Part shown: piece after piece, positions 9,374 through 18,479 of the stretch
How the letters are laid out: the number at the start of each line of letters is the position of its first letter
Position numbering within the stretch: the first letter of the stretch is position 1
From: Stenotrophomonas maltophilia ATCC 19867
Lineage (GTDB): Bacteria; Pseudomonadota; Gammaproteobacteria; Xanthomonadales; Xanthomonadaceae
Reading direction: 5' to 3'
Assembly (NCBI RefSeq): GCF_000382065.1
Contig: NZ_KB907503.1
Span: 98,682-122,681, forward strand
DNA length: 24,000 bases
Notes under the pieces: generated by a model
Database searches by the model: none
What the model was told of the DNA's origin: nothing
Seen by the model: only the letters and a program-made list of their open reading frames with translations
Position numbers and translations under genes: made by a program

Positions 9374-10735
9374 CTATGCCCGCTGGTTCTTCGCCGGTAG
9401 CAGAGGCACACCCCGATCCAGCAATTCATCCAGGAAGGCATCGCGCACCAATGCCTGGTCGGACTGGTTGGCCAACACCAGGCTATCAACCACGCGCCTG
9501 GCAAGCGTACGGGCCCGAACTCGCAGAAGGGCCGGGATCGCCTGCATCGATCTACCGTGCAAGAACTCGCTGCGCAGCTCGAACAGCTCCCTGTAGTCGG
9601 AGGTGGCCTGCTCATCGAGCAGCGCCACCAAACGAGCGCACACTCTTTCAGTCGCCCCAAGCTTATCGTGAGTGCCGACGCCCGAGCTGGACTTACGCTT
9701 GTAGTCCAACGGCAGGCCGAGCGCCGCCTCGATGGCAAGAAGATGAGACATGAATTCGTCGATGCCATCAGTCAAGAAGGCACGGCAGAAAAAGTGGGCT
9801 ACAGGTGTCTGGAACAGCTGCAGCTGAGGCAACTGTGCGATCGCCTGGGCGCGGCCCGCGAAATGTTCGGTAAGAGCGTCCGCCGATCCATCTCTCAGCC
9901 ACATTGCAACGGGCTGAGAGATGTCGACCGATCGACCTTCCGCGTCATGGGCGATCCGATCCTCCCAAGTGAGGGTATCCGAGCTGGGCGGCCGCTTCAT
10001 GGTGGAGAACAGATCATGGTCCACCGAGTACAACCAGGGAATCTGCATCCCACGCCATTCAATGTGTGGCGCATCTGACCAAATTTCCCACGGTGCCAGC
10101 GCTAGCCAGAACAGTGCCGTCTCAACGGCCTCCGGATACTTTCCTCGATGAGGTTCGATGCGCCCATAGTCCTGTTTCGGATCGAACGAGAATCGGAACA
10201 GCTCTCGGCCTTCAGGGCCACGACGGATCGACACTTGTTCCCTCACGACCAGCCATTGAAACTGGGAGAACTCGTCAAGGTCAAAGCTCTTCCCTGGATG
10301 GACTCTCTCCATGCGATCAAGGTCAACAAGCTCGGCAAGCTCGTCCTTGGTCAATCTGCCAACCACCGCATTACCGAAACACGCCATTGGAAGGCCGTCT
10401 GCAAGATCCAGAGGCATCAGATGGACTCGCGTGAAGCAGGTTGCTTCCAGCGCGGCCTGTAGCCGTTCCGCAGCCTCCCTTGCCGTCATCGCCAAGTGCT
10501 TCTTGGATTCAGGCAACCCACACGGCAGACCAAGGCCGGCCAGCGCACAGGACATGGATATGCCACCGAAGAATCTCCGCGCGTCTGCAGAGTAGGGCTC
10601 AATCGCGTCCACCAGCTGTGCGTAGAGGGGGGTCTCTGTCAGATTCTTCCACGCGGAGTCGGGAAGCTGCCAGAGCGCCTCCATTGCACCTACGAGTTGT
10701 GAGGAGGGAGCCCCGGCCACCGAGCTGCTGATCAT
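9374..10735 (-). CDS. Protein with uncharacterised ~300-aa N-terminal region and C-terminal HEPN-like domain (R-x4-H)
   Basis: 453 aa. The C-terminal segment FFCRAFLTDGIDEFMSHLLAIEAALGL...YRELFELRSEFLHGR carries R388-x4-H393 (codons 9572-9574 and 9557-9559), the HEPN RNase signature, after an LE-A-L helix typical of Abi/Apea-like HEPN domains. The ATG overlaps the TIR gene stop (ATGA). Confidence 0.68.
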   Translation of the reverse strand: MISSSVAGAPSSQLVGAMEALWQLPDSAWKNLTETPLYAQLVDAIEPYSADARRFFGGISMSCALAGLGLPCGLPESKKHLAMTAREAAERLQAALEATCFTRVHLMPLDLADGLPMACFGNAVVGRLTKDELAELVDLDRMERVHPGKSFDLDEFSQFQWLVVREQVSIRRGPEGRELFRFSFDPKQDYGRIEPHRGKYPEAVETALFWLALAPWEIWSDAPHIEWRGMQIPWLYSVDHDLFSTMKRPPSSDTLTWEDRIAHDAEGRSVDISQPVAMWLRDGSADALTEHFAGRAQAIAQLPQLQLFQTPVAHFFCRAFLTDGIDEFMSHLLAIEAALGLPLDYKRKSSSGVGTHDKLGATERVCARLVALLDEQATSDYRELFELRSEFLHGRSMQAIPALLRVRARTLARRVVDSLVLANQSDQALVRDAFLDELLDRGVPLLPAKNQRA

Positions 10736-11841
10736 ATCTTCAGCCTCCGCAGCAACTTCTCCAGTCCTTCCTCATACTTCTCCGCGCTGGAGAAGTCGGC
10801 GTAGAGCTTCCCTTGCAAGAAAGCAGGGATATCGCAATCCTCGAAGAGCATGGGCAGGACAACGACTTCGCCGCTACTGATCTCGCGGTTCATGGCCACA
10901 TCAAGCTCTTTCTTGACCCAAGGCGCAGCGATCGACTTCTGCGACAGGACTACACCGACGTATCGGCTCATTACCATTCCCTCGTCAATCTTTGCGATCA
11001 GCGAGTCACCCACTTGTATCTCGGCTTCATCCAGCCAGACCTTTGGCACGCCTCTTTCCATCAGGTCACGCCTGAGCTTCCTGACGAACGGCTTGTCGGC
11101 ACTGGTATGGCTAAGGAATATCCCATGGTACCTGGGGGCTTCTGGCTCCGCCTTGCTCACGGCCAGAGCGCCCAAGATGAGACGGTTGGTCGCTTCCTGC
11201 GTCAACGGCGGAGTTATCAACCATCCTGTGGTTGCACCGATCTCAACTCTGGCTCCAATTTGGTAACCCTCCGGCGTCGCCGCAATCGTAGTCAAGCCCG
11301 GTTGATCGTTCTCCAGCGCGATCCTCCAGCCGCCGAGAGTGGCCAAGTCCCCGAAGTAGGAGGCGAAGGGCGTATCGGGATCTATGAAACCCACTCGCCT
11401 TCCCTTCTTGATTATCTGACCCCCACGCCGAATCGCGGCTGTCATCGCCGGCGCCAGATACCCCAGGCTCGTCTCTCGATAGCCGAAGAAGTTCATTCGC
11501 CGTGGCTCGGCCATGCACCAGACCACGGTCGCACCCACGGCCATGGCGGCCTCCAGCTCGTTCTGGCGGTCCACACTGTCAAAGACGTTGTCCAGATCAT
11601 GCTCTCTGTCGTCCGCTTTCAGCTCCAGAAGCTCCTGATCTGAGCCAGAGTGCACGCCCTCTTTGCCGAACAGGAAGTGGCTGTAGCTCTGTGGATTGAT
11701 AACGATGACGTCATACTCATAGAGCGGGTACGCAGCCCTGGCCTCATCGATGTCTGATCGGCAAAGTCCGAGTTGCTCGAACTCCACACCTTCAATCGGG
11801 GTGCCGGTGTATTGCATACCGACAGTCAGCACTCTCTTCAT
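10732..11841 (-). CDS. TIR-domain protein with an uncharacterised ~235-aa N-terminal alpha/beta domain
   Basis: 369 aa. Residues ~238-369 (approx. 10735-11130), YHGIFLSHTSADKPFVRKLRRDLMERGVPKVWLDEAEIQVGDSLIAKIDEGMVMSRYVGVVLSQKSIAAPWVKKELDVAM, match bacterial TIR_2. This includes the W...E glutamate (E312, 10906-10908). A strong SD (AAGGAGAG) lies 5 nt upstream of the ATG at 11841. Confidence 0.87.
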   Translation of the reverse strand: MKRVLTVGMQYTGTPIEGVEFEQLGLCRSDIDEARAAYPLYEYDVIVINPQSYSHFLFGKEGVHSGSDQELLELKADDREHDLDNVFDSVDRQNELEAAMAVGATVVWCMAEPRRMNFFGYRETSLGYLAPAMTAAIRRGGQIIKKGRRVGFIDPDTPFASYFGDLATLGGWRIALENDQPGLTTIAATPEGYQIGARVEIGATTGWLITPPLTQEATNRLILGALAVSKAEPEAPRYHGIFLSHTSADKPFVRKLRRDLMERGVPKVWLDEAEIQVGDSLIAKIDEGMVMSRYVGVVLSQKSIAAPWVKKELDVAMNREISSGEVVVLPMLFEDCDIPAFLQGKLYADFSSAEKYEEGLEKLLRRLKI

Positions 11842-12144
11842 GGGTTCTCTCCTTGCTCACCATTGTTCGTCGGTCACCGACGATCCACGCTGTTCCGCCC
11901 TACCCATCCGCACTGTTGCGAAGGGAACGTTGAAATTGCTGTTGCAGAGCAACTCTGGAACTGCCGCTTTCAGGGCCACCATGAATACAACAAGCTCCAT
12001 CGCAACCTAGAGGTCAGATCCCGATGCGGCGGCTGACCGGCGATCCGACTGAGGTGTGGACGATCTTGGCTGGAGGGTCATCTGCGTGGCAAGCGGCGCG
12101 ACACCCAGTCGCTCCAGGCGCCTCTCATGCGCCCAATGTGCCTT

Positions 12145-12194
12145 CCCCATCCCCATCCCCATGCTCCTTGCAACTTGCAACTTGCAACTTGCAG
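12145..12194. repeat. Adjacent short tandem repeats: (CCCCAT)x3 then (CTTGCAA)x3 plus CTTGCAG
   Basis: CCCCAT at 12145-12150, 12151-12156 and 12157-12162. CTTGCAA at 12167-12173, 12174-12180 and 12181-12187, followed by CTTGCAG at 12188-12194. Each heptamer contains the palindrome TTGCAA. Confidence 0.9.
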
Positions 12195-12543
12195 TTGAGG
12201 ATCATTCTCAAAGTTGCGCAATTGACACTTTTGCTCGCATCCGAGGGGCCTTGTCGGGGGAGCGAGCCGCTCGCGGGGATTGCCCCGCCCGGGGCGCTTG
12301 AATGCCAGGTTGTACGCCCCGCTCGGGACCCTTCACATTGGTCCTTTCACGTCCGATTGTGCTTGTAAATAGCATGCTTGCTTCATGTCCTACAGCCGTC
12401 CCGGCTGCCCTCCCCCCCTTCCCAGCCGGGGTAGACCGCCATGGCTGGCGACCTGCCACAGCCGGTCTCAGTCTGGGAGATGGGGGCATGTTGTACTTGC
12501 AATGAAAACCGGGTGCTACAATTTCCAAACGATGGGGACCGTC

Positions 12544-13071
12544 ATGACGACAATGTGGAAAGAACCTGAAGCACTGGGCTGGAACCGTGCCGAGGTGTCT
12601 GCGCTTGCCTCCGATGCGGTGAAGGAACTGGGCTTCTCCCCTGGGCAGCCCATTGAGCCAATCGTCCATCAGCTCGGCGGTAAGATCGTCTACGGCGAAC
12701 TCATCGAGGATGAGTCGGATTCTGGCTCGATTCGCATCGAGAACGGCAAGTTCACCATCAACATCCCCTTCAACACGAGTCCCCTGCGCGATCGATTCAC
12801 CATCGCCCATGAGATAGGTCACTTTGTTTTGCACTACCTGGTGCAGAACAAGATGAACAAGAAGAACATCACGCACCTGCGCGCTCAGCGGTATGGAAAG
12901 GACCAACCTGAGATCGAGGCCAACTGGTTCGCTGCTGCATTCCTGATGCCCAGCGATACCTTCCGCAGGGTCTACCAAGAACTTGGGAAGGACACGCTGA
13001 AGGTAGCGGAGTACTTCAAGGTTTCGCCCAGCGCAGCGAGCGTGAGGGCCCAGTCTCTCGGCCTTTCCTAA
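12544..13071 (+). CDS. ImmA/IrrE-family (M78, COG2856-like) zinc metallopeptidase
   Basis: FTIAHEIGHFVLH (HEIGH codons 12808-12822) is followed by PEIEANWFAAAFLMP, the HExxH...E.EAN.FA..fLmP signature of ImmA/IrrE peptidases. Start is uncertain: ATGs at 12502, 12532, 12544 and 12553. 12544 has GGGGA 5 nt upstream, and TACAAT lies at 12517-12522. Confidence 0.85.
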   Translation: MTTMWKEPEALGWNRAEVSALASDAVKELGFSPGQPIEPIVHQLGGKIVYGELIEDESDSGSIRIENGKFTINIPFNTSPLRDRFTIAHEIGHFVLHYLVQNKMNKKNITHLRAQRYGKDQPEIEANWFAAAFLMPSDTFRRVYQELGKDTLKVAEYFKVSPSAASVRAQSLGLS

Positions 13072-14436
13072 GTGCCGAGGTCTGGCCTGAGCAAAGGCGA
13101 CGTTCGCGAGTCGCTTGAGCCAAAACTGCGTCTATTCCTGAGCGCAGACATTGTGGGCTCCACCGCGTTCAAGCAGCGCTCTGGCGAAGGCTCTGAACAA
13201 TGGTTCCGCTTGGTACGCACCTTCTACATGATGGCGGAGCGCTACTTCGCGTTCCGCTGGTCTTTGGCCAAGGATAGGTATCAGGACGCAGAACGCCCGC
13301 TGCTCTTTGGCGACGCCGCTCCCGAGCTGTGGAAGACCGTGGGTGATGAAGTCCTCTTTACCAAAGAGATTGCCCATCCCTCGGAAGCCATGATGTGCAT
13401 GAGCATCTGGCTGCAGGTCCTGGAAGATTTGCGTCAGTTGCTCGATAAGAGCGGTTTGGACGTCAAGTCCTCGGCCTGGCTCGCTGACTTCCCGATTCGC
13501 AATCGGGAGATTTTCCTGCACACCGGCGCGCCGACCAAGACCGATGATGGCGCGAAGAACGACCCTCCGCCTCAGACTGATGTCGCCGACCGCTCCAACG
13601 ACCCGACGGAGGATCTGGAGTGGGAAAATGACAGTCTGTTCGACAGCTACAAGGCACGCTTGCCTGGGGTAACACGCGACTTCATTGGCCAGTCGATCGA
13701 CACCGGCTTCCGCGTCAGCACCGCGGCGTCGTCGCGTAAGCTCATGTTGTCGGTGGAACTTGCGCACATGCTCAGCATGGAGTGCGAACGTTTGGATCTT
13801 GATCCCTACCGAATCGGTGCCTTCCCTGTCCGCAGCTTCACCTTTCACTACGACGGACGCAATGCTCTCAAAGGCGTGCTCAACGGCACGCCCTATCCGC
13901 TAATCTGGCTCGATGTTGAGCCGGCAAAACGAATCCACGTCACCGAGGATGTCCTCAGCGCCAGGCCCAAGCCAACGCCGCGACAGATCCACGAGTTCAC
14001 CACGGCGCTGATCACCGAGTTCCCCACCCGGTTCTGCTCGATGCTGGAGTTCCTGGATGGCCCATGCCCGCCGGCATACGAAGAGTTTGAAAAGAGCCTC
14101 ACTGATTCGATCAAGAAGCTCCACCAGCAGTTCACCGACCGGGAAGCGAACATTGAGCTGAAGAAGTTGGCCGTTGGCATGCCTGAGGACGGTCCACGCA
14201 ATGTTTCTGCCGATTTCAAATCCCTTCTGCAGCCCGCCGATGCCGGCAAGCCGCCCAGTTCCTCCCGCAAATCTCGCCCGCAGAAAGCAGCTAAGGCCTC
14301 GTCGAAGTCGGCTCGGAAGGTGGTAACCAACGCTCCGGGTAAGACCAGCGGGACGCCCCCTGTTGCGGCGGCCAAGAAGGCTTCTGCGAAGAAGACCCGT
14401 GCGAAGAAGGCGGCGAAGGCCCCCCCTCAAGACTAG
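13072..14436 (+). CDS. Divergent class III nucleotidyl (adenylyl/guanylyl/pyrimidine) cyclase-like protein with a C-terminal Lys/Ala-rich histone-H1-like tail
   Basis: LFLSADIVGSTAF (Asp codon 13147-13149), LWKTVGDEVLF (Asp codon 13345-13347) and DFIGQSIDTGFRVSTAA parallel the class III cyclase motifs F.D..GST, K..GD and G..vN.A.R. The last ~60 aa are KAAKASSKSARK...AAAKKASAKKTRAKKAAKAPP. GTG start lies directly after the ImmA stop (TAAGTG, 13069-13074). The first metal-binding Asp requires a start at or near this position. Confidence 0.6.
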   Translation: MPRSGLSKGDVRESLEPKLRLFLSADIVGSTAFKQRSGEGSEQWFRLVRTFYMMAERYFAFRWSLAKDRYQDAERPLLFGDAAPELWKTVGDEVLFTKEIAHPSEAMMCMSIWLQVLEDLRQLLDKSGLDVKSSAWLADFPIRNREIFLHTGAPTKTDDGAKNDPPPQTDVADRSNDPTEDLEWENDSLFDSYKARLPGVTRDFIGQSIDTGFRVSTAASSRKLMLSVELAHMLSMECERLDLDPYRIGAFPVRSFTFHYDGRNALKGVLNGTPYPLIWLDVEPAKRIHVTEDVLSARPKPTPRQIHEFTTALITEFPTRFCSMLEFLDGPCPPAYEEFEKSLTDSIKKLHQQFTDREANIELKKLAVGMPEDGPRNVSADFKSLLQPADAGKPPSSSRKSRPQKAAKASSKSARKVVTNAPGKTSGTPPVAAAKKASAKKTRAKKAAKAPPQD

Positions 14437-15319
14437 ACTCCATCAGCCCAGATGTAGGCGAGCTAGTCGTAGGTGACAATGACGAGCGGATTGCTTGTGG
14501 CGCGCCGCTCACACTGACGTTGATCGTGGAGCCGCCGGCAGGCGCTGTGGGCTTGGATTCGCCCACACTCACGATCAACAAGATGATGACCCCGATTGCG
14601 CCGAAACATTTCAGAAAGCCCATCGCGCTGCGATAGTTCCGCTCGCCTTTCTTGATTCGATTCCACTCCGGCTTGATCACCAAGTTGCCCAGTAGCGTTG
14701 CATCGTCAATAGACCGCTTGATGAGCGCGTACTGCTCCTTGGTACCGACTTTCTCGTACGGACCGAGCATTGCACCGATCAGCCTTTCCAGTTCAGACAC
14801 CAGCAACGCTGCGGCACCTGACGGGCTACCGTTCTGGCTGGTCTGATGGATGTCACTTGGCTGCTGCGCCGGACTGAACTGGCTGTTGCGAATCAGAAGC
14901 TTCCACCTCTCCTCCACCTTCTGCTCAACTGAGATGTCTTGGGTAATGTAGGGCAGCCCCCAAGCTGTCTCCCCAAAGTTCAGATGTAGCAGCACCGTAC
15001 GATGAGCTTTCCTCAACGTGTTCCAGTGACTGGTCAGCTGTTCCTCGAGCACTTCAGTGTCAGCCTTGCCCAACAGCGGAGCGCCCACGGACTTTCCCGA
15101 GCGTTCCGCATCCACCTGGGCGTGCTGAACCCGAATCCAGATGCGGCCAGAGATGACATAGGCTTCGCCCAGGAGTTCAGCCAGGGCGCTTCGGAAGGAG
15201 CCAATCCAGTCCTTCCGGAAATCAGACGTGCGCGATTCCTTGTCTGCGATCAGCTTGGCGATAGCCAAGATCGCTGCGATGATCGCACCGCTGAGTGCAA
15301 CTAGTTCTTTGCCTTCCAT
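14291..15319 (-). CDS. Hypothetical two-TM membrane protein with a helical central region and a Ser/Pro-rich tail
   Basis: 342 aa. Strong SD GGAGGAG lies 6 nt upstream of the ATG at 15319. Hydrophobic helices are at ~6-24 (LVALSGAIIAAILAIAKLI) and ~233-252 (MGFLKCFGAIGVIILLIVSV). Residues ~295-342 are encoded antisense to the cyclase tail. No family recognised. Confidence 0.6.
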   Translation of the reverse strand: MEGKELVALSGAIIAAILAIAKLIADKESRTSDFRKDWIGSFRSALAELLGEAYVISGRIWIRVQHAQVDAERSGKSVGAPLLGKADTEVLEEQLTSHWNTLRKAHRTVLLHLNFGETAWGLPYITQDISVEQKVEERWKLLIRNSQFSPAQQPSDIHQTSQNGSPSGAAALLVSELERLIGAMLGPYEKVGTKEQYALIKRSIDDATLLGNLVIKPEWNRIKKGERNYRSAMGFLKCFGAIGVIILLIVSVGESKPTAPAGGSTINVSVSGAPQAIRSSLSPTTSSPTSGLMESSLEGGPSPPSSHGSSSQKPSWPPQQGASRWSYPERWLPPSEPTSTRP

Positions 15320-15644
15320 GGGTACTCCTCCGCCGCAACATCTCTAGCCCCATCTGGATCGATGGGGCGCCATTTCGCCTACTTTCGCATTGCGAGTTAT
15401 CGGCTGTCCGTCGCCGAACTTTACAGCTCTCCTCATGGCTTGGGCAGAGGGAAGATTCTCCTATTCGCGCCGCAGGCTGCGTACTCGCCCCTGTCGATTC
15501 AGCGCTGCTGGACTCGTACAGTTCTACTTTGACCTGGCCTGCGCTATGACTTACCGTCCGCATGGACCCACAGGGTCTACAGACCATGCTGAACCAAGCA
15601 TGGCAACGCAACACTCGATAGACTCAGAAGGGAGTGGACACGGA

Positions 15645-16577
15645 ATGTTTAAGCGTTTTGATGAGAGCTATGCACAGCTAGTCAACTTCTTTCCGGATTT
15701 GACGTTTGTTTCTCCTGAAGAGGCGCGCTCGGATGAGGTGCTCTCTACATCCGTTGCCATCGTCGATCAGCTTTGCCGCAGCTTTTTTGCCTATCGCTCG
15801 TCACAGGTTCACGGCGTGTGGGGGATTGAAAACTCCTACGACGAGAACGCCTTTGTGAGTACCCTCAATGGCTGTTCAAGCATCGTCATCACTCGTGGCG
15901 CTTGCGTTCGGCTCGCGCGCGTAGGAAATTTTTTTGCGACTCACGATTGGATAAGCAACAGTGAACGGATGCGTCCGTTCCACGACGCTATTGACGTACC
16001 GCGGAACAGATTGGGCGAGGCCACGCAGATGCTTGGTTTGGCGGCCCTGTTCGGTCATGAAGTGGGCCACGCAATGGACCGGCACAACGTGCACAGCATT
16101 GCCGGCCAAAAGCAGGAGGCGCAGCTCGGCGAGGAGATATCGGCCGATGGTCGAGCAATCCTTCATGGGCTTGATATCGTGGATGCGTGGGCCCACAGCT
16201 TGGCCACGGGGCATGAATCGGAGCAGGACGCGATCAAGCAGGCAGGTGCTGTCCTTCTTGTGATCGCAAATGCCGCCATCGACAGTATCCACCTCGACCG
16301 CAGCTGGGATGTTCCGGCCAATCAGACGCACCCACCTGGCGCCCAGCGTCTTCTTGCCACATGCATAATGCTCGATCAGTACTTTGACGGCGTCGCTGAA
16401 GAGGGATTTGGGCTCAAAGTGTTCTTGACCGCCCTCTCAGGGCTCAAGGAAATGGGCATTTACCATGGCCCGGTCGAGGAGGAGGCGCTGAGGCAACTGT
16501 TGGCGATCTACGATTCAGCAGCGGTCGTCGCGCAGTACAACGCCCTGCAAGCGACACTGATCGAGCGAGGGCTCTGA
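15645..16577 (+). CDS. Hypothetical HExxH zincin-like metallopeptidase
   Basis: LAALFGHEVGHAMDRH (HEVGH codons 16056-16070) is followed 17 aa later by GEEISADGRAIL, a possible third-ligand Glu as in ImmA/SprT-like zincins. Start set at ATG 15645, with AAGGGAG 9 nt upstream. The alternative ATG is 15600 and the ORF is open from 15390. Confidence 0.55.
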   Translation: MFKRFDESYAQLVNFFPDLTFVSPEEARSDEVLSTSVAIVDQLCRSFFAYRSSQVHGVWGIENSYDENAFVSTLNGCSSIVITRGACVRLARVGNFFATHDWISNSERMRPFHDAIDVPRNRLGEATQMLGLAALFGHEVGHAMDRHNVHSIAGQKQEAQLGEEISADGRAILHGLDIVDAWAHSLATGHESEQDAIKQAGAVLLVIANAAIDSIHLDRSWDVPANQTHPPGAQRLLATCIMLDQYFDGVAEEGFGLKVFLTALSGLKEMGIYHGPVEEEALRQLLAIYDSAAVVAQYNALQATLIERGL

Positions 16578-17286: not shown

Positions 17287-18249
17287 CTAGATGTCAATCT
17301 CGACGTACTCGTGACGAACATGGCTGAGGAGTTTCGGAAGTAGCAGACGCATCCGGTCCAACGCGACTTCGATCTTCTGCCAGACGATCTCCTGATCTGG
17401 GGAAAGAGACGCATCTCCAGGATTGGAGAAGAAATATCGGCTTCCGTCCGGCGCGGGGCGATAGACCTGCCAGTAGCGCACGGTCTCGGCAAATTCCTCT
17501 TCGAACTGAATGAGAAGCTCATGAGCCGCTGCGTCATGGAGATGAAACGAGCTTGCCGCAAGCACGCCGCTGAAACACTCATACATATCGACCGTGTTTG
17601 ATGTGAGCACGCGAGGCGCCCACTGCATATGAACATCCAGAACATTCAAATCAAGCGTAGATATCACCCTTCTCAGCGCGGCCAGGTCGCGAGAGCGCCT
17701 CAGCTGCTCCGGCGACTTCTCCGCACCGGGCTTATCTGGTGCCAAGCTGATCAACGTATCAACAGCAACGCTCAATAGCGACAGGAGGCTATCCTTCTGA
17801 TTCTTGGTAACAGGCTCGCTCGCCTTGTAGCCAGAGGCGCGTTGCCGATCAATATCAAACGGCATATCTGAAAGCGGACCGAACTCCTCATTTACAAGCA
17901 GGATGATGCGCCCCCAGCCCAGCATGGCGACCGCATAGCCAAGCTCGAAAATCACGTTGGGGTTGGGCACCCTCCTGTCAGATGGTGCGGCGCTCTTGTT
18001 GATCGTAGATACGTCGCAGATGAAGTAATCTGCCTTGCGTATCTTCTCCAGAATCGTCAGCGGAACGTTCTGGCTACCAGAGGTCTCGCGAGTTGCCTCA
18101 TCCAACGTAATGGACAGGCCAGAGTGCTTTTCTTCGGCAGCATTGATGGCCAAGCGCAGCTGCTTCTTGATCAGCTGGCGATTGGTCGCATTGGGCAGAT
18201 CGCTCTGCCAAGAGTAGAAGATGGTCCTGGTGGTGGTTTCGCTGGTCAT
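17287..18249 (-). CDS. Nucleoside 2-deoxyribosyltransferase-like / TIR-like (Rossmannoid) N-terminal-domain protein with an uncharacterised C-terminal domain
   Basis: From ATG 18249: MTSETTTRTIFYSWQSDLPNATNRQLIKKQL...KADYFICDVSTIN...VPNPNVIFELGYAVAMLGWGRIILLVN. The aD..i.d......pN.nV.fElGyA...g...i.l block resembles the catalytic-Glu region of the NDT/DrHyd and TIR-like assemblage. The ORF is open to 18339. Confidence 0.6.
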   Translation of the reverse strand: MTSETTTRTIFYSWQSDLPNATNRQLIKKQLRLAINAAEEKHSGLSITLDEATRETSGSQNVPLTILEKIRKADYFICDVSTINKSAAPSDRRVPNPNVIFELGYAVAMLGWGRIILLVNEEFGPLSDMPFDIDRQRASGYKASEPVTKNQKDSLLSLLSVAVDTLISLAPDKPGAEKSPEQLRRSRDLAALRRVISTLDLNVLDVHMQWAPRVLTSNTVDMYECFSGVLAASSFHLHDAAAHELLIQFEEEFAETVRYWQVYRPAPDGSRYFFSNPGDASLSPDQEIVWQKIEVALDRMRLLLPKLLSHVRHEYVEIDI

Positions 18250-18479
18250 GCTGATGGCAATCGGGCTAAGGGTTGCGAGCATGGAGAGGTTCGCCGCGGC
18301 GGTCAACACAGAGTAGGCGCACGCGGCTCCACACAACATCCATCTTCTGGACCGGTCTCCGCCGATACCCTAAAGGCCGACAGCCGGAGTAGCCGCTCGC
18401 ACCCCGGCTATCGGCAACGGCAAGGCGTAGCGCGCACTCATAGGCAGCGATGAGAGCTTCCGCCTCCCGGCACCGACAC

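Follow-up and report, generated by a model that had tools for sequence, protein, structure and literature searches.

A conserved pairing of an ImmA-type protease with a divergent class III cyclase, and its possible role in cyclic nucleotide defence

Stenotrophomonas maltophilia ATCC 19867 encodes an ImmA/IrrE-type (Peptidase_M78) protease directly upstream of a protein resembling class III nucleotide cyclases. The two genes lie in a stretch of 24,000 nucleotides (contig NZ_KB907503.1, positions 98,682 to 122,681), called the window below. They were first singled out from the letters of the sequence as a possible protease-gated signalling module; we refer to this as the original prediction. Here, we report that the pairing is a conserved module and not a local accident. 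Our favoured explanation is a Pycsar-like cyclic nucleotide monophosphate (cNMP) defence cassette, with the cyclase controlled post-translationally by the protease. We put this forward tentatively, and place its chances a shade below even.

An M78 protease gene abuts a gene for a divergent cyclase

The protease reading frame ends with TAA at 13069-13071. The very next codon, GTG 13072, opens the 454-residue cyclase reading frame. Hence, the listing of open reading frames and the sequence itself both confirm the abutment described in the original prediction. The protease contains HEIGH, EIEANWFAAAFLMP and a downstream glutamate (EIEAN). It matches Pfam family PF06114 (Peptidase_M78) at 3.9e-22, which bears out the earlier call of an ImmA-like enzyme. 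The best PADLOC model was CapP (8.6e-26; profile positions 4-152 of 242). As judged from Pfam and PADLOC profile coverage, the 175-residue protein has neither a helix-turn-helix (HTH) nor a GAF domain.

The protease start codon, ATG 12544, is supported because a Shine-Dalgarno-like GGGGAC and a TG-n-TACAAT element are conserved in three relatives. Both elements are common to the aligned upstream regions of L001, L002 and L005 (loci carry the prefix L throughout). Scans of 11700-15500 for consensus promoters and terminators, and with Rfam, gave no result. Hence, the promoter is assigned from conservation only. Upstream of the promoter region is an inverted repeat, TCTCAG-N5-GGGAGA, at ~12466-12482. 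In the same three relatives the counterpart is TCGCAG-N5-TGCGAC; both arms are changed and the palindrome is preserved. This repeat may be an operator. The 700-bp intergenic region 5' of the protease gene also contains, within 12140-12195, CCCCAT repeats and three to four copies of the heptamer CTTGCAA (12168-12195).

The cyclase start at GTG 13072 is supported because LRLFLSADIVGST is conserved family-wide. By comparison, RefSeq models WP_154081356.1 and WP_134709227.1 are 427 residues long and start at V28 (MGSTAFKQ...). They therefore omit β1 and D26, encoded by positions 13072-13155 of the window.

The downstream protein is predicted to have a class III cyclase fold

The downstream protein was modelled with AlphaFold2 (mean predicted local distance difference test (pLDDT) score 82) and compared with the PDB using Foldseek. 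There were 144 matches at E<=1e-3. Catalytic domains of class III cyclases accounted for all of the top 50, led by CyaB (3r5g) at 2.6e-9. Next were CyaC, Rv1900c, soluble guanylate cyclase (sGC) and the C2 domain of mammalian adenylate cyclase (AC), with target TM-scores of ~0.7. E-values for CyaB, CyaC, Rv1900c and sGC ranged from 2.6e-9 to 1e-6. The model is thus that of a class III cyclase. The motifs on which the original prediction was based (D26, D92 and G206..R214) are present.

Sequence searches with the single protein, or with a 36-member profile, found no match in Pfam, PADLOC, NCBIfam or the PDB. In particular, Pfam Guanylate_cyc (PF00211) did not match the window protein or any of 36 family members at E<=1, and both phmmer and profile searches of the PDB were negative. 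The sole library match was PHROG 18024 (function unknown; 6e-28).

Residues at key positions of the cyclase are described in Table 1. The distance from D26 to D92 is 66 residues, as originally stated. By the numbering of Rv1264 and mammalian AC, the spacings K88-D92 (4), D203-D210 (7) and D210-R214 (4) are the same as in canonical homodimeric class III cyclases. K88 and D203 correspond to the adenine-type specificity pair of the canonical enzymes, and ATP is the predicted substrate. A K/D specificity pair makes the link to cCMP and cUMP, drawn earlier from Pycsar, doubtful. The transition-state Asn-Arg pair is altered: the Arg is invariant (R214) and the Asn position is occupied by an invariant Asp (D210). 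This is a substitution, not a loss. From its residues, we predict that the cyclase is active.

Table 1. Key residues of the cyclase, with roles assigned by analogy and conservation among 138 family representatives
Residue	Position in protein	Role by analogy	Conservation
D26	End of β1 in model; motif SADIVGST	Metal Asp	126/127 that cover the position
K88	4 residues before D92	Specificity residue	137/138
D92	β2-β3 hairpin in model; motif WKTVGDE	Metal Asp	138/138
D203	7 residues before position 210	Specificity residue	136/138
D210	Transition-state Asn position	Substitution, Asn to Asp	138/138
R214	4 residues after 210; motif G206-I209-D210-x-G212-x-R214	Transition-state Arg	138/138
K267	LKGV motif	Phosphate Lys	130/138, plus Arg in 5

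The core of the cyclase homology domain (CHD) spans residues ~15-285 and has a long α1 of 30 residues. Residues ~151-180 have low pLDDT and form a disordered insertion that is absent from most of the family; this agrees with the large insert noted originally. Beyond the CHD are a helical extension (287-372, ~85 residues) and a disordered Lys/Ala/Pro tail (373-454, ~80 residues). The original prediction had envisaged an extra C-terminal domain of ~150 residues and a Lys/Ala tail. The tail stands, and the domain gives way to the shorter helical region because the cyclase domain itself reaches ~residue 285.

The cyclase family is large and its catalytic residues are conserved

A homologue search returned 219 relatives. 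Nearly all carry the name 'hypothetical'; for two the name is 'class 3 adenylate cyclase'. Clustered at 50% identity, the family numbers 2,068 clusters at E<=1e-3, or 887 at E<=1e-30. Only 2 relatives were present in IMG/VR, and we rejected a mainly phage-borne module for this reason.

For comparison of gene neighbourhoods, one genome was taken per species. This gave 79 loci, or 80 with the window. These loci had been retrieved by motif patterns containing some of the catalytic residues. Hence, conservation was re-checked on an independent set of 138 representatives from an exhaustive HMMER search. Judged from these alignments, the catalytic set is essentially invariant (Table 1).

One clade has no protease. 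It comprises 20-odd Caulobacterales genomes (L027-L063; Phenylobacterium or Caulobacteraceae), exemplified by L038 (5953-6948). These cyclases, of ~331-357 residues, keep every catalytic residue and lack the C-terminal tail. The gene is a syntenic core gene, convergent with spoT/rel and beside a gene for a POT peptide transporter or orotate phosphoribosyltransferase. The tail is carried by paired cyclases and is absent from orphan cyclases.

Protease and cyclase genes are paired in four phyla

An M78 gene was immediately upstream of the cyclase gene, on the same strand, in 56 of the 80 loci. The spacing is usually -8 to +35 nt, often with an overlap of 1 or 4 nt, and the protease gene comes first in all paired loci. 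Pairs also occur on a Leptospira interrogans plasmid, in Leptospira phage LE1 and on a Mycolicibacterium plasmid. In total, the pairing spans four phyla and includes mobile replicons with unrelated flanks. The original prediction had proposed co-occurrence of the two genes as a check, and the linkage recurs in other phyla too.

The partner proteases are all ~175-200 residues long, and HExxH is present in 48-50 of 55. Pairwise identities of protease and cyclase are correlated (r = 0.50). There are two apparent M78-cyclase fusions, which we treat with caution: L012, from a metagenome-assembled genome, and P0104, from a eukaryotic transcriptome and probably a bacterial contaminant. In both, the cyclase occupies the place that GAF has in CapP and IrrE.

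The classical substrate of ImmA is an HTH repressor. No gene for such a repressor adjoins the pair in the window, as had been remarked originally. This is not peculiar to Stenotrophomonas. In local jackhmmer searches with three seeds, just 5 of the 56 pairs had an Xre-type HTH nearby (within 2.5 kb), and the other 51 had none. Pfam HTH_31 was found in 2 of 103 upstream neighbours. By these searches, the classical substrate is generally missing from paired loci.

In LE1 (L084; gp81-gp80-gp79), the pair is in the immunity region, ~0.5 kb from an oppositely oriented CI repressor gene. The annotation of gp81 is 'transcriptional regulator; immunity region protein'.

Membrane proteins are encoded convergently with the cyclase

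The gene convergent with the window cyclase, which had escaped the original prediction, encodes a protein with two transmembrane (TM) segments, called U342 here. The 3' ends of the two genes overlap by 146 nt (14291-14436), and both overlapped parts encode low-complexity, low-confidence tails. In U342, two membrane spans, TM1 (~6-24) and TM2 (~232-252), enclose an all-helical cytoplasmic domain, and a low-complexity tail follows TM2. The AlphaFold2 model (pLDDT 74.6) is all-helical. Three motifs of the helical domain are invariant: DFRKDWI, HWN..R....LLHLNF and LLGNLV.KPEWNRIK.

U342 is encoded directly after the cyclase in L001, L002, L004 and L006, and is displaced in L005; the flanks of these loci are unrelated. 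Distances between the two genes in relatives range from a 3 nt overlap to a 58 nt gap. The trio was seen again at two further loci that we looked up. Only 26 homologues of U342 exist in the whole protein database. At least 15 of the 26 are on contigs equally long as the contig of a close cyclase relative. On this evidence, U342 is exclusive to this cyclase clade.

In four alphaproteobacterial loci, a PycTM-family gene is convergent with the cyclase gene and abuts it. The products were scored against Pfam PF18967 (PycTM; threshold 27.2 bits). They scored 29.0 bits in Sphingomonas (L023), 31.4 and 39.9 bits in two Brevundimonas loci (L041 and L064, respectively) and 25.7 bits, below the threshold, in Asticcacaulis (L037). 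PADLOC was run on L041 and L064 only. It returned PycTM for both (4.6e-14 and 1.4e-22, respectively) and a CBASS 2TM effector (2.5e-36) for L064. No further cyclase, canonical or otherwise, was present among the genes checked beside PycTM in these two loci. The two loci have different flanks, and their divergent cyclases share just 31% identity. PycTM is thus repeatedly coupled to the divergent cyclase, which is the best evidence that the cyclase generates a diffusible immune signal. U342 is a candidate effector because it occupies the same convergent position as PycTM in relatives.

We also considered a third component among the downstream genes on the same strand. This was dropped, as these genes are a mixed group that includes CobN, a transposase and several unrelated small ORFs. 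A PilZ (c-di-GMP-binding) domain was found in 2 of 105 downstream neighbour proteins (3.2e-12).

The setting of the pair is a defence island

Positions of the principal features are listed in Table 2. Other genes in the window encode HATPase_c_3, SNF2-like helicase, NOV_C and N6/N4 methyltransferase proteins, a protein with the antitoxin-type domain Xre_MbcA_ParS_C, and DUF3800 and DUF4365 proteins. Together with the TIR two-gene unit, the Lit/U49-like peptidase and the CAP12/PycTIR-type TIR protein, this gene content marks the setting as a defence island.

Table 2. Features of the window
Feature	Position	Strand	Description
Promoter-proximal region	12514-12543	+	Extended -10-like TGCTACAAT (12514-12522); Shine-Dalgarno-like GGGGAC 5' of ATG 12544
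Peptidase_M78 gene	12544-13071	+	175 aa; single-domain ImmA/IrrE-type Zn metallopeptidase
Divergent class III cyclase gene	13072-14436	+	454 aa
U342 gene	14291-15319	-	342 aa; two-TM protein; convergent with cyclase gene
Partner of TIR protein	9374-10735	-	453 aa; no family match; start/stop codons overlap with TIR gene
TIR protein	10732-11841	-	369 aa; C-terminal TIR_2 (6.4e-27); PADLOC PDC-S66
Lit-like protein	15390-16577	+	Weak Peptidase_M48 / U49 match
CAP12/PycTIR-type TIR protein	17287-18339	-	350 aa; PF10137, 30.2 bits

Two neighbours were tried as effectors and dropped. The TIR two-gene unit (9374-11841) is divergent from the M78 operon and probably constitutes a defence system of its own, because neither gene is conserved with the M78-cyclase pair. 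The second candidate was the CAP12-type TIR protein. In L041, a protein encoded ~2 kb downstream of the cyclase shares only the TIR domain with it (35% identity over 129 residues). This resemblance is limited to 2 loci and is possibly a coincidence.

Elsewhere, the pair adjoins Druantia genes (DruA), integrases, transposases and methyltransferases. The flanking genes are heterogeneous among loci.

A model for the module and alternative explanations

Our proposal builds on the folds, the catalytic residues, operon coupling, the pairing itself, a clade-exclusive membrane partner, the position of PycTM and the defence island. Briefly, the cyclase would make a diffusible cNMP from ATP, predicted from the K88/D203 pair to be cAMP-like. 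This cNMP would open or activate U342. Activated U342 would then damage the membrane, and infection would be aborted. The M78 protease, translationally coupled to the cyclase in this scheme, would act on the cyclase itself; our guess is that it does so most likely at the C-terminal helical extension or the tail. In this way, a stress or infection cue could be coupled to signal synthesis with no need for a transcription factor.

Two considerations shaped the proposed role of the protease. First, the M78 protein has no HTH partner and no GAF domain. Hence, its control is expected to be post-translational or to act via an unlinked target. Second, the C-terminal extension was chosen as the site of action because of the analogy with CapP and IrrE, and because the tail is found on paired, and not on orphan, cyclases. 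CapP cleaves the C-terminal dimerisation region of the neighbour-encoded CapH, and cleavage of DdrO by IrrE has the same outcome (bioRxiv 10.1101/2022.04.27.489752). The nucleotide product, whether the protease activates or restrains the cyclase, the part of U342 as effector and a phage phenotype are all inferences. That the cyclase is the substrate of the protease, and that proteolysis switches synthesis on, is pure conjecture.

A bolder form of the proposal can be stated. The pair would belong to a large immune family that has so far escaped annotation, and its ImmA-type protease would gate the cyclase directly by proteolysis, without a transcription factor. A purine cNMP, probably cAMP, would serve as messenger, and Stenotrophomonas and related bacteria would use a new helical bundle with two TM segments as the effector. 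Taken as a whole, this version is doubtful.

Several observations weigh against a defence cassette that signals to a membrane effector. The main weakness is that no linked effector gene is recognisable in ~46 of the 56 paired loci. Hence, the two-gene core must work without a linked effector in most genomes. U342 itself belongs to no recognisable family. Foldseek of its model against the PDB gave a best E-value of 0.06 and no recognisable fold, and hhalign against PycTM gave a probability of 0.2, which indicates no homology. U342 is also encoded on the opposite strand and is therefore outside the protease-cyclase operon. No CRP-type cNMP-binding domain was found in U342 or in any ORF of the loci, by a search of limited sensitivity. 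The invariant Asp in place of the canonical Asn means that the chemistry of the cyclase may be different. Furthermore, many loci are among housekeeping genes (uvrA, uvrB, recQ, secA), and the orphan clade adjoining spoT has no protease.

The pair could instead be a Rosmerta-like toxin-antitoxin or abortive-infection system. The cyclase would be toxic, by depletion of nucleoside triphosphates or by flooding the cell with cNMP, and the M78 protein would be the antitoxin, holding the cyclase in check by binding to it or cleaving it continually. The cyclase would be freed on infection or when the module is lost. The membrane proteins would be optional add-ons. ImmA-domain proteins constitute a hub class of antitoxins whose toxins are very diverse, and the defence role of RosmerTA has been validated (PMC10440598). 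The window protease matches PADLOC RmrA models at 1e-14, over the C-terminal half only (profile positions ~150-295; among the RmrA models, from ~140-200 on). However, the N-terminal HTH of RmrA is absent. The NCBIfam match of the protease is 'spr1629 family repressor/antitoxin' (1e-13). A conserved core limited to two closely coupled genes amid varied neighbours is also expected of such a system, as is the mobility apparent from nearby integrases and transposases and from copies on plasmids and in a prophage. Conversely, the orphan clade keeps all of the catalytic residues without a protease, which is hard to square with an enzyme that is inherently toxic. The presence of a dedicated partner, PycTM or U342, likewise suggests a signal and not a toxin. 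We judge the toxin-antitoxin explanation unlikely.

Alternatively, the pair could serve DNA damage or stress signalling, or act as a switch for a mobile element, and not be dedicated to immunity. The protease would sense damage. The cyclase-like protein would be a sensor or regulatory subunit, in the place of GAF, or the output; some members would be recruited to DNA or RNA polymerase (RNAP). The readout would be host physiology, or induction of a prophage or integrative and conjugative element via an unlinked repressor. All characterised M78 proteases (ImmA, IrrE and CapP) are DNA-damage responsive (bioRxiv 10.1101/2022.04.27.489752). In several alphaproteobacterial genomes, the pair is directly downstream, on the same strand, of the nucleotide-excision-repair genes uvrA (L010, L024) or uvrB (L022, L034), of recQ (L020) or of the RNA-repair gene Hen1-PNKP (L041). 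However, such adjacency comes down to some three or four separate events, which does not clearly exceed chance.

The C-terminal tails, which vary among family members, bear on the same explanation. A few of 36 members scanned, including P0094 and P0102, have tail domains that bind nucleic acid or RNAP: a PcrA/UvrD Tudor domain (9e-7) and weak matches to SAP and CarD/TRCF-RID. Basic (Lys/Arg-rich) tails occur in just 19 of 258 family members. Hence, tethering to DNA by the tail, as originally suggested, is not a family-wide property; such tails look like a recurrent but minority theme. Damage signalling would also fit the apparent fusions, the CI repressor near the LE1 pair and the orphan clade as a core gene beside spoT/rel. 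Against this, no repressor is linked in 51 of the 56 loci. The window copy and several others are in defence or mobile contexts (DruA, methyltransferases, integrases), and PycTM-type killers at the locus would be unexpected for a repair regulator. We consider a damage or stress role rather improbable.

Finally, it is very improbable that the genes are independent neighbours, the protease serving an unlinked HTH repressor and the cyclase being an ordinary physiological adenylate cyclase: the family does include a protease-less, vertically inherited clade, but start and stop codons overlap or abut, the pairing recurs in four phyla and on mobile replicons whose flanking genes are unrelated, apparent fusions exist and partner identities are correlated.

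Implications

If the Pycsar-like reading is correct, a large family (~2,000 clusters at 50% identity) would be added to the antiphage cyclic nucleotide systems. The cyclase family has been missed entirely by Pfam, NCBIfam and PADLOC v2. Proteases of the ImmA/IrrE/CapP type would be wired into immunity in a second way, acting on a signal-generating enzyme and not on a repressor. U342 would be a new membrane effector family. With its two or three genes, the module is a tractable system for studying how M78 proteases sense infection or DNA damage, and would probe cAMP-like purine signals as dedicated immune messengers. Our analysis also corrects the RefSeq gene models that lack the first catalytic Asp.

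Comparison with known systems

Our literature searches found no description of an M78-cyclase pairing, consistent with the remark in the original prediction that no described defence system with it was known. The nearest case is a CapP and CapH pair noted beside a cyclase/cNMPBD-TIR (Pycsar-like) operon; CapP-type proteases regulate CBASS (bioRxiv 10.1101/2022.04.27.489752). A survey of immune cNMP cyclases recognised a STAND-fused clade besides five subclades related to Pycsar, and an M78 partner is listed for none of them (bioRxiv 10.64898/2026.08.12.744502). The same survey described a 3TM effector family and subclades that prefer ATP or GTP.

The window system resembles Pycsar and Pucsar in having an enzyme of class III cyclase fold beside a small membrane protein in a defence island. 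In four relatives, a PycTM-family gene takes the place of the two-TM gene. However, the window cyclase is too divergent for the Pfam Guanylate_cyc or PADLOC models, has a K/D adenine-type pair and has Asp in place of the canonical Asn. It also has an M78 partner. Its membrane protein is unrelated to PycTM, and no PycTM or CNBD-TIR gene is adjacent in the window. Furthermore, the effector gene is convergent and not co-transcribed, and most loci are without one.

The comparison with CapP/CapH, IrrE/DdrO and ImmA/ImmR is similar. The window protease is an M78 Zn-peptidase closest to CapP, and it heads an immune operon. CapP consists of an M78 domain, a central HTH-like linker and, at the C terminus, a GAF domain (bioRxiv 10.1101/2022.04.27.489752). 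In contrast, the window protease has no HTH partner, HTH-like linker or C-terminal GAF. With RosmerTA, the window pair shares the plan of a two-gene, defence-associated module in which an ImmA-domain protein has a variable partner. It differs in that the N-terminal HTH of RmrA is absent, and in that the protease gene is first and the cyclase gene second. We found no cyclase-type RmrT in PMC10440598.

Compared with canonical class III cyclases (CyaB, CyaC, Rv1900c, sGC), the window enzyme is only 13-16% identical. The metal Asp residues are 66 residues apart, with a 30-residue α1, the Asn is replaced by Asp, and a helical C-terminal extension and tail are added. Nevertheless, the modelled fold, the metal Asp pair, the Lys-Asp pair, the transition-state Arg and the phosphate Lys are shared. 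As judged from these sequence features, the module is not a member of Pycsar, of the CapP systems or of RosmerTA; these are nonetheless the closest known kinds.

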